Shown: positions 61,156-62,721 of the stretch, piece after piece
Numbering within the stretch: the first letter of the stretch is position 1
Layout of the letters: every line of letters starts with the position of its first letter
NCBI RefSeq assembly: GCF_058153355.1
Contig: NZ_CM177019.1
Reading direction: 5' to 3' (one strand)
DNA length: 64,000 bases
Made by a program: the position numbers and the translations under genes
The notes under the pieces: generated by a model
Database searches by the model: none
The model's input: only the letters and a program-made list of their open reading frames with translations
Told to the model about the DNA's origin: nothing

Positions 61156-61172
61156 TTGGAAAAATTTTCCAA
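61156..61172. promoter_or_regulatory. Candidate AllR operator upstream of gcl
   Basis: Perfect palindrome ttggaaaaattttccaa 21 bp upstream of the gcl start; same half-sites as the palindrome in the allA-allS intergenic region. Confidence 0.6.
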
Positions 61173-61184
61173 CTTTCAAATTTT

Positions 61185-61215
61185 GTCAAAAAAACCCGCT
61201 CCGCAGAGCGGGATG
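61185..61215 (-). terminator. Rho-independent terminator downstream of allR
   Basis: Minus-strand hairpin cccgctctgcggagcggg followed by a T-run, just after the allR stop. Confidence 0.55.
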
Positions 61216-61224
61216 CGACAGACA

Positions 61225-62040
61225 CTATGGATGTGCTTTCAGTCCCAACGCCGTGCTGATATCGCGGGCGGTGTCTCTGACCAGCTCACCCTGACTGACA
61301 AAACGATCTTCTGTCAGTCTTGATGAAGGCCCGGAGATGGAGATAGCGGCAACAACGCCACCTACATCATCGTAAATTGCTGAAGCTATGCAATTCAGAC
61401 CTACAACATGCTCTTCTTTATCTACGGTATAGCCCAGTTCACGCGCTTGTTCCAGGTCCTTCAGCAAGGTGGGCATATCCACAAGCGTAGTTGGCGTAAA
61501 CTGCTGCAAACCGGTTTGCAGAATGATGCTCATCAACTCCTCTTCCGCCAGCGGATAAAGCAGCGCTTTGCCCGCACCGGAAGCATGCAGCGGCAGACGA
61601 CTGCCCAGCGGCGCACACATCCTGACCATCGATTTACATTCTAACTGACCAATTAATACTGCTTCATTGCCGTTACGAATCGCGACATTGACCGTTTCGC
61701 CGGAAAGTAACATCAGGCGGCGCATAAATGGCCCAGCGACGGAGAGGACATCGCGGTTATGGATGTACGCCGCACCGACGTTAAAGACACCTAATCCTAT
61801 ATGCCACCAGCCTAACTGACTGTCCTGATAGACAAAATCCGCTGCCTGTAAAACCTTCAGCAAGCGAAAGGTCGTGGAGAGCGGCAAATCCAGATTGAGA
61901 GAAATATCGCTAACCGACGAACTTCCCCCACTTTTTTCCAGATATTGCAGAATCGCAATTCCCCGCTCTAACGCCTGTGCGCCCTTTTGTGCCACAGGCT
62001 CCGCCTGTCCTGGCCTGCCGCGCCGTCTAACTTCCGTCAT
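61225..62040 (-). CDS. allR: IclR-family repressor of the allantoin regulon AllR, 271 aa
   Basis: 271-aa [37 protein letters not shown] with IclR HTH and effector domain. Confidence 0.92.
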
Positions 62041-62117
62041 ACCTACGTTAACTCCGACCTACAAGTGAGCATAAACAATGAACAATTAGTTTATCTTATG
62101 CAAGTCGGTTGCAGGCG

Positions 62118-62600
62118 TCACGCAAAACAGAGTTCCTGTTCAGGAATACTTTCAACATCACAGTTGTCACTGCCGCCGCGATCGATGGTCAGAAAATCGG
62201 TGACGCGCTGCCAGGCGAAAAGTGGGTGATGCCAGACGTTACGATGATAATTCACTCCCTGTTCACCGTTGGTGATAAACGCCCGCAGCGTTGACAGGTC
62301 TGGTTTGTCGTCACCTAACGCCACGACCACCACAAACACTTCACCTTTCATCGGGATAAAGGCCTGAGTGCCCAGCGGATGACGTTCGAGTTCGTGAATG
62401 GTCAGCGGCAGATTCGCCGGTTGCGCGCGGTTAATGCTGATAAGCGTACGGTCTTGCTCAAGAATCTCAACCAGCGCCAAATCGTGGTAACGCTCCACCA
62501 GGCCATTGTTAATATGGAAAAAATCCCGTTGCTGCGTTTCGATTACGTCGCCATAAGCACTAAAGGCTTCCTGACTTAACGGTAATACCTGAAGTTTCAT
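62118..62600 (-). CDS. allA: Ureidoglycolate lyase AllA, 160 aa
   Basis: 160-aa cupin [24 protein letters not shown]. Confidence 0.92.
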
Positions 62601-62704
62601 CTTTTTGTCCTTGTAACATAATTCCGTTCAACCACCGCCGACCGGACAATGTGGTTCAATAACAGGCAATCTAAAACCTTAAGAGAACAACATCAATACA
62701 AAAG

Positions 62705-62721
62705 TTGGAATATTTTTCCAA
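62705..62721. promoter_or_regulatory. Candidate AllR operator in the divergent allA / allS intergenic region
   Basis: Perfect palindrome ttggaatatttttccaa; shares TTGGAA/TTCCAA half-sites with the gcl-upstream palindrome. Confidence 0.6.

Follow-up and report, generated by a model that had tools for sequence, protein, structure and literature searches.

In Escherichia coli K-12, operators of the repressor AllR are known at the gcl promoter and in the allS-allA intergenic region, from work reportedly done by Rintoul et al. in 2002, Walker et al. in 2006, and Hasegawa et al. in 2008. The AllR-repressed gcl promoter is already used in biosensors. Both the control region of allS-allA and the promoter of gcl are bound by AllR; glyoxylate acts as its inducer and allantoin as its corepressor (PMC12535856; PMC11323563), and allD and allF are reported to have no AllR site (PMC12535856). 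According to published ChIP/IPOD work, AllR in vivo is a transcription factor of high specificity that occupies only about three locations, one of which lies upstream of gcl. The AllR motif has been published as KTTGGAAWAWTWTTCCAAC, with Rintoul et al. 2002 given as the source (PMC8222616, Table 1), and the same paper, a comparative study from 2021, places AllR in the A/T-rich palindrome group of IclR-family operators. Its supplementary table (PMC8222616, Table_1.XLS) lists three sites for K-12 AllR (b0506): gTTGGAAtATTTTTCCAAA at -124 of allS, TTTGGAAAAATaTTCCAAc at -124 of allA, and gTTGGAAAAATTTTCCAAt at -39 of gcl. Another paper (PMC13300388) attributes to Rintoul 2002 a 37-mer that it calls the “AllR recognition site”. 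The other close relative is the IclR box at the aceBAK and iclR promoters, which shares with the AllR box the protein family, the TGGAA-N5-TTCCA geometry, glyoxylate as the effector, and a tetrameric repressor (PMC8222616; PMC11323563). The IclR box differs from the AllR box in belonging to another regulator and regulon, and in its central bases and outer T/A.

We analyzed a stretch of 64 kb (hereafter, the window), in which two inverted repeats of 17 bp had been noticed from the sequence. The coordinates and letters given for both 17-mers in the original prediction are exact. The two sites and the genes around them are as follows.

58565-59341, minus strand: hyi (open reading frame).
59354..61135, minus strand: gcl (glyoxylate carboligase), the first gene of the repressed operon (NCBIfam glyoxylate carboligase equivalogs, K-12 annotation).
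61156..61172: site 1, the putative AllR operator of the gcl operon, TTGGAAAAATTTTCCAA (TTGGAAAATTTTTCCAA in the sense of gcl), with 8 of 8 arm pairs.
61225..62040, minus strand: allR, the IclR-family repressor expected to read both operators (Pfam, NCBIfam, PDB, RefSeq annotation).
62118..62600, minus strand: allA (ureidoglycolate lyase), repressed, on one side of site 2 (Pfam, NCBIfam, RefSeq annotation).
62705..62721: site 2, the putative AllR operator common to the divergent allS and allA promoters, TTGGAATATTTTTCCAA, with 7 of 8 arm pairs.
62829..63755, plus strand: allS (LysR-type activator of allD and allF), repressed, on the other side of site 2 (Pfam, NCBIfam, RefSeq annotation).

The identity of these genes is clear. 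The product of allR matches the NCBIfam AllR equivalog NF007548 over its full length (1-271) with 617 bits, against a cut-off of 406; it has the Pfam domains HTH_IclR and IclR_C, and its effector domain matches PDB 1TF1 (E=7e-110). AllS scores 640 bits on its NCBIfam equivalog (cut-off 372), and AllA and Gcl are also identified by equivalog models. The DNA is that of Escherichia coli: the stretch is present in 5,404 of 5,426 complete E. coli genomes, at 97-99.5% identity and with the same four gene names in the RefSeq annotation. Against K-12, the identity is 96.8% over the aligned 5 kb (59051-63999).

The two sites had been described as flanking allR, and the pair does enclose allR, but allA (62118-62600) is enclosed as well, between site 2 and allR. 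The distances to the genes depend on where gcl begins. On sequence grounds, its true start is the ATG at 61135, as the MAKMRAV start is kept across genera with codon-wise variation. A longer open reading frame, beginning with a GTG at 61225 and running across the operator and the terminator, was dismissed as a product of mechanical extension. With the ATG at 61135..61133, the gap to site 1 is 20 bp, and the spacing of 21 bp that had been given is right. Site 2 is 104 bp from the ATG of allA and 107 bp from the ATG of allS.

Both sites had been called perfect palindromes. This is correct for site 1, whose arms are complementary at all eight pairs around an unpaired central base, but not for site 2, which has only seven of eight arm pairs because positions 7 and 11 are T:T. 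The two sites have 15 of 17 bases in common on the same strand and 16 of 17 if one of them is reverse-complemented. They have the features of the A/T-rich palindromes of the IclR family: dyad-symmetric half-sites, a length of about 15-19 bp, and a location upstream of regulated genes. The assignment to AllR had been offered with the caveat that the shared pattern, TTGGAA-N5-TTCCAA, might be frequent elsewhere. In the 64-kb window it is not: there are just two exact matches, sites 1 and 2, and there were no matches across 100 dinucleotide-preserving shuffles of the window. From base composition, we would expect 0.0035 matches per 64 kb, or 0.27 per 5 Mb. If two mismatches are tolerated, then one more match appears, at 18682, and the total of three is at chance level (3.1 expected).

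Both sites agree closely with the published AllR operators. Read in the sense of allA, site 2 (TTTGGAAAAATATTCCAAC) matches the published motif KTTGGAAWAWTWTTCCAAC at 19 of 19 positions, and site 1 matches it at 18 of 19 positions on either strand. When site 2 is extended by 10 bp in both directions (62695-62731), its minus strand is letter for letter the 37-mer quoted in PMC13300388. In K-12, both sites are present (532329-532345 and 533879-533895), with the same genes, positions, and half-sites as here. The K-12 counterpart of site 1 (533879-533895) is the same at 16 of 17 bp, and this is the sole difference within the sites: the central base is flipped, so that the gcl sense reads TTGGAAAATTTTTCCAA here versus TTGGAAAAATTTTCCAA in K-12. 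This central base is the one position of site 1 that has no symmetry partner. One further difference from K-12 is a single base 3 bp downstream of site 1. The variant is common: of 5,125 E. coli records, 1,396 match the allR-gcl intergenic region that carries it at 99% identity or more, and the form of the gcl site with T at the center is also found in Shigella flexneri (PMC8222616 supplement). A full-text literature search for the exact 17-mers returned no relevant match.

To see how far the sites are conserved, we sought AllR relatives in one genome per species and obtained 22 orthologous loci, from Escherichia, Superficieibacter, Klebsiella, Raoultella, Citrobacter, Buttiauxella, Izhakiella, Atlantibacter, Providencia, and other Enterobacteriaceae. 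The motif survey covered the 64-kb window and about 190 kb of these loci. All 19 of the complete allR loci have exactly two sites (with at most one half-site mismatch), and these are at both orthologous positions. Another two loci are incomplete, upstream of allR (L002) or downstream of it (L023), and each has the one site that falls inside its bounds. Within 4 kb on either side, we found no additional site in any locus with an allR orthologue. The first orthologous site is found in the allS/allA spacer, at 656-723 bp upstream of allR, and the second lies 37-163 bp downstream of allR and 12-27 bp before the ATG of gcl (21 loci).

The overall DNA identity between these loci and the window is only about 77%. 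In anchored alignments, the half-site columns carry 1.9-2.0 bits versus 0.6-1.0 bits for the flanks, and the five central bases are variable yet A/T-rich. At both loci, and in about ten genera, the same 12 half-site bases have hardly changed, whereas the flanking sequence has diverged. The imperfection of site 2 (A at positions 7 and 11 in the sense of allA) is also kept, in 18 of 21 species. A position weight matrix that was trained on non-Escherichia sites alone gave 33.4 bits to site 1 and 33.3 bits to site 2, while the next best score in the window was 11.3 bits and shuffled sequences reached up to 13.5 bits. Weak AllR-like sites at 61127-61147 (0.4 bits) and 18680-18700 (11.3 bits) were rejected, given the scores reached by the shuffles. 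Because the whole allantoin cluster lies inside the window, we conclude that there is no third AllR site in the cluster, which agrees with the reported absence of sites at allD and allF.

Given these comparisons, the two inverted repeats are very probably the operators through which AllR controls gcl and the divergent pair allS/allA, as the original prediction had proposed. The proposal is supported by the match of the regulator to NF007548, by the agreement with the published motif (18/19 and 19/19), by the identity to the quoted 37-mer and the entries in the K-12 table, and by the co-occurrence of the sites with allR. The sites are where AllR operators are expected, one upstream of gcl and the other between allS and allA, and the gene for the cognate regulator lies between them. 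Physical binding by AllR and its relief by glyoxylate are as reported in the literature, for K-12 sequences. Since the motif, the location, the cognate regulator, and the co-conservation all agree with what has been published, the finding is already known: this AllR operator pair is a published one.

The original prediction went further and held that the spacing from the start codons implies direct promoter occlusion. Occlusion does not follow from the distance to a start codon alone. At gcl, the relevant features are as follows.

61195..61212, minus strand: intrinsic terminator hairpin of allR, CCCGCTC-TGCG-GAGCGGG, followed by a T-run (terminator scan).
61188..61422, minus strand: counterpart of the AllZ sRNA, from the 3' end of allR and its terminator (K-12 annotation b4831; 98.3% identity over 235 nt).
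61184..61189, minus strand: predicted -35 element of gcl, TTGACA, overlapping the T-run of the terminator (read from the sequence).
61161..61166, minus strand: predicted -10 element of gcl, AATTTT, coinciding with the A/T-rich center of operator 1, at a spacing of 17 bp from the -35 element.

Both the terminator hairpin and the T-run have been kept in the orthologous loci. Because allR terminates at this conserved hairpin, a separate promoter for gcl has to fit into the roughly 55 bp that precede the ribosome-binding site of gcl. The AllZ counterpart, which ends 16 bp before operator 1 and so lies outside the operator, is part of the context of this region; AllZ of K-12 has been verified by Northern blot (PMC8175672).

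In most of the orthologous loci, the place of the proposed -35 element, 16-17 bp before the operator, is taken by TTGnnn or TAGACn. Across orthologues, the second base of the -10 hexamer is mostly kept as A, and its sixth is always T. A simple promoter scan made no call for the proposed gcl promoter, whose -10 element matches at only 3 of 6 positions. The only promoter that the scan reported near gcl (TTTCCA-17-TAAAAT, 61162..61134) was rejected because its -10 element overlaps the ATG of gcl; both N-terminal Met codons of gcl are conserved as coding sequence. With the proposed elements, transcription of gcl would begin at about 61154, leaving a 19-nt leader with the ribosome-binding site GAGGTAGG, and site 1 would span about -18 to -2. 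Occlusion of the gcl promoter by AllR is plausible because operator 1 is centered on the predicted -10 element.

For the allS/allA spacer, an alignment of 16 sequences showed the operator and four further conserved blocks, from which we predicted the following features.

62668..62696, minus strand: predicted allA promoter, with -35 element TTGATG (62696..62691), a 17-bp spacer, and -10 element TAGATT (62673..62668), from conserved blocks.
62758..62766, plus strand: predicted extended -10 element of allS, TGTAAAAAT, from a conserved block (TGnAAAAAT is conserved).
62721..62742, no strand assigned: hypothetical CRP site abutting operator 2, ATTTGTGGACTAAATCTAGTTT, from the conserved TGTGG-N6-TC (62724-62739).

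The extended -10 element of allS is followed by a conserved CTTATAAATCA block. With these elements, transcription of allA would begin near 62661, which would put the center of operator 2 at about -52 and its end 8 bp upstream of the -35 element of allA. Similarly, transcription of allS would begin near 62773, with the center of operator 2 at about -60. Promoters for allS that use the operator's TTTCCA as the -35 element were rejected, as the matching -10 element is not conserved. We also rejected the TGTGG block as a third AllR half-site, because conservation does not extend to the A needed for TGGAA. The 17-mer appears to cover neither the predicted -10 nor the predicted -35 elements, so the geometry does not support simple occlusion at allS/allA. 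Thus, the claim of direct occlusion is plausible at gcl, where the operator is centered on the predicted -10 element, but not at allS/allA, where the conserved hexamers lie outside the 17-mer.

The candidate CRP site is weak, with 14 of 22 matches to the consensus and 6 of 10 in the core, and such a core score is common by chance. If the predicted transcription starts are right, then its center (62731.5) would be at -41.5 for allS and at about -70.5 for allA. A site at -41.5 is in the classic position for a class II activator, and from about -70.5 class I activation by CRP is possible. In Klebsiella pneumoniae, cAMP-CRP binds the promoter-proximal stretch at allS, according to an excerpt of PMC5521740.

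Putting these observations together, we propose the following model. A single AllR dimer would read the TTGGAA and TTCCAA half-sites through its winged helices, with the A/T-rich 5-bp center in between. Without glyoxylate, AllR would occupy both operators. Occupancy of site 1 would turn off the operon gcl-hyi-glxR-...-glxK, as AllR bound over the -10 element would sterically exclude RNA polymerase. Occupancy of site 2 would turn off allA and, in the other direction, the activator gene allS, and with allS off, allDCE and allFGHK would be turned off indirectly. Glyoxylate would cause AllR to be released, and allantoin is reported to strengthen repression. At allS/allA, repression could come about in either of two ways: the AllR footprint may spread over the -35 element of allA and the candidate CRP site, or AllR may block upstream contacts by CRP and by the C-terminal domain of the alpha subunit (alpha-CTD) of RNA polymerase. 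From the arrangement of the conserved blocks, repression by either of these routes is more probable than coverage of a -10 element. The arrangement recalls two textbook classes. One is a pair of divergent promoters with a single shared operator, in which one central site represses both promoters, as proposed here. The other is anti-activation at a class II CRP promoter, in which a repressor at about -60 could exclude alpha-CTD or CRP, with the corresponding geometry for AllR inferred only from the conserved blocks.

A more specific version is that AllR at the shared operator acts as an anti-activator by blocking the docking of CRP and alpha-CTD, that an AllR tetramer bridges the two operators in a loop, or both. 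An AllR tetramer could form such a bridge because each locus has only one dimer-sized palindrome; the operators are 1,549 bp apart, and the loop would enclose allA and allR. We consider this version rather unlikely, judging from the sequence.

The remaining alternatives concern what recognizes the sites. One is that the paralogue IclR, which represses aceBAK, reads them instead of AllR or alongside it, as the two regulators have nearly the same box: the TGGAA/TTCCA cores of the IclR box TGGAAATNATTTCCA (PMC8222616, Table 1) and their spacing are those of the sites here, AllR itself scores 247 bits on the IclR model, and both proteins sense glyoxylate (PMC11323563). The inner 15-mers match the IclR box at 12 of 14 positions (site 1) and 11 of 14 positions (site 2), but the central bases that are diagnostic of the IclR box (T7 and A9) are unmatched. 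Also, the sites lie in the all cluster and track allR orthologues rather than aceBAK, and published site lists, whether derived from footprints or from comparative analysis, give these sites to AllR. We therefore consider a role for IclR at these sites to be very improbable, and AllR remains the expected regulator.

It is also conceivable that the inverted repeats act as a hairpin in RNA or DNA (such as a terminator, a cruciform, or a hairpin in the leader) instead of binding a protein, as their self-complementary arms could pair in principle and site 1 is close to the gcl leader. However, there is no G+C-rich stem and no loop other than a single central base, most of site 1 is upstream of the predicted transcription start of gcl, and the sites have no match in Rfam at E<=1. 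A scan for terminators near the sites found only the allR hairpin (61195-61212), and neither site qualifies as a terminator or a structured RNA. Among the 42 orthologous sites, the six outer pairs show fixed bases instead of covariation, and the inner pairs are often non-complementary; pair 7, for instance, is complementary in only 3 of 21 allS/allA sites. Invariant outer pairs with inner pairs that are often unpaired are the signature of base-specific read-out by a protein, and the probability that the repeats act as a hairpin is close to nil. Equally negligible is the idea that these are chance A/T-rich promoter sequences with no dedicated protein partner: although both sites are in A/T-rich intergenic DNA and the center of site 1 doubles as a putative -10 element, this reading is effectively refuted by the statistics (not even one match in 100 shuffles, with 0.0035 expected per window) and by half-site bases that are invariant at two loci and in about ten genera while the flanks diverged.

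Recognizing the AllR operators in this genome adds little beyond confirmation, as they are textbook, RegulonDB-level knowledge. Still, a genuine pair of operators for a transcription factor was recognized from raw sequence alone, and the comparison points to some modest questions about the regulation of this cluster. One is how a single dimer-sized site, lying upstream of the core elements of both divergent promoters, would repress the two. Another is whether CRP has a role in E. coli like the one reported in Klebsiella. A third is whether the common A/T polymorphism at the center of site 1, in the putative -10 element of gcl, affects the basal expression of gcl.

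This E. coli window appears to belong to a less common lineage. Among 5,404 E. coli genomes, only 14 match the 2.1 kb from 60900 to 63000 at 99% identity or better; most of the others match at 95–99%. Over the 5 kb that align with K-12 (59051–63999), identity to that reference strain is 96.8%. Escherichia whittamii (allR-orthologue locus L002) has an AllR protein of 100% identity to the one encoded here, although its DNA is only 93.9% identical.

The same genome collection contains two plasmid-borne copies of the allS–gcl region, a version of only 80–90% identity in 34 records, and 22 genomes that lack the region. 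Separately, in comparing loci L009 and L021 from the one-genome-per-species search, we noticed an enterobacterial allS-allA-allR-gcl locus in a record titled “Chryseobacterium sp. 18061.” Both of its AllR sites are the same in sequence and position as those of “Citrobacter sp. 18056,” which is from the same study, and the Chryseobacterium assembly is probably mislabelled or contaminated.

The AllR operator that is shared by allS and allA (62705–62721) has a single non-complementary pair, at positions 7 and 11 (62711 and 62715), and the mismatch itself is conserved: in 18 of 21 species, both positions are A (in the allA sense). The gcl operator, unlike the shared one, is symmetric at these positions in most species. 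Conserved sequence continues from the shared operator towards allS, as follows.

62721–62742: candidate CRP site, a conserved TGTGG-N6-TC block that adjoins the AllR operator (14 of 22 consensus matches).
62758–62778: two strongly conserved A/T-rich blocks upstream of allS, TGnAAAAAT and CTTATAAATCA.

The candidate CRP site is centered at -41.5 relative to the predicted start of allS and at about -70.5 relative to that of allA. For Klebsiella pneumoniae, CRP binding at allS has been reported (via PMC5521740). We read the TGnAAAAAT block as a predicted extended -10 element. The CTTATAAATCA block lies around the point where allS transcription is predicted to begin, and a factor that exerts anaerobic or nitrogen control over allS might act there. 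Elsewhere in the window, the sole further approximate match to the AllR box is TGGGAATAAAATTCCAC at 18682–18698 (2 mismatches, 11.3 bits), which we treated as a chance match because its score falls within the range for shuffled sequences.

On the other side of allR, the conserved start codon of gcl is the ATG at 61135 (MAKMRAV). A mechanical listing of open reading frames instead started gcl at a GTG at 61225 (59354–61225, - strand; 30 codons longer), which we rejected as an artefact; the extended frame would run through both the gcl operator (61156–61172) and the allR terminator. Two features lie next to this operator.

61188–61422, - strand: counterpart of the K-12 sRNA AllZ (b4831, K-12 533629–533863), with 98.3% identity over 235 nt.
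61184–61212, - strand: allR/AllZ terminator, whose T-run overlaps a perfect TTGACA that we read as the predicted -35 element of gcl.

In the K-12 annotation, AllZ (b4831) consists of the 3′-terminal part of allR together with its terminator. It was verified by Northern blot in K-12, and a few RIL-seq partners are reported for it, among them grcA (PMC8175672). In the window, the 3′ end of its counterpart stops 16 bp short of the gcl operator. The terminator and the predicted gcl promoter are fused, and orthologous loci across genera keep this arrangement.

The 89-bp allR–gcl spacer differs from that of K-12 at only two bases, 61164 and 61153. The window's version is matched at 99% identity or more in 1,396 of 5,125 E. 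coli records. The difference at 61164 is an A/T flip at the central base of the gcl operator, the position without a symmetry partner; the T-centered variant is also tabulated for Shigella flexneri (PMC8222616 supplement). If the center of this operator is the -10 element of gcl, then the flip turns AAATTT into AATTTT.
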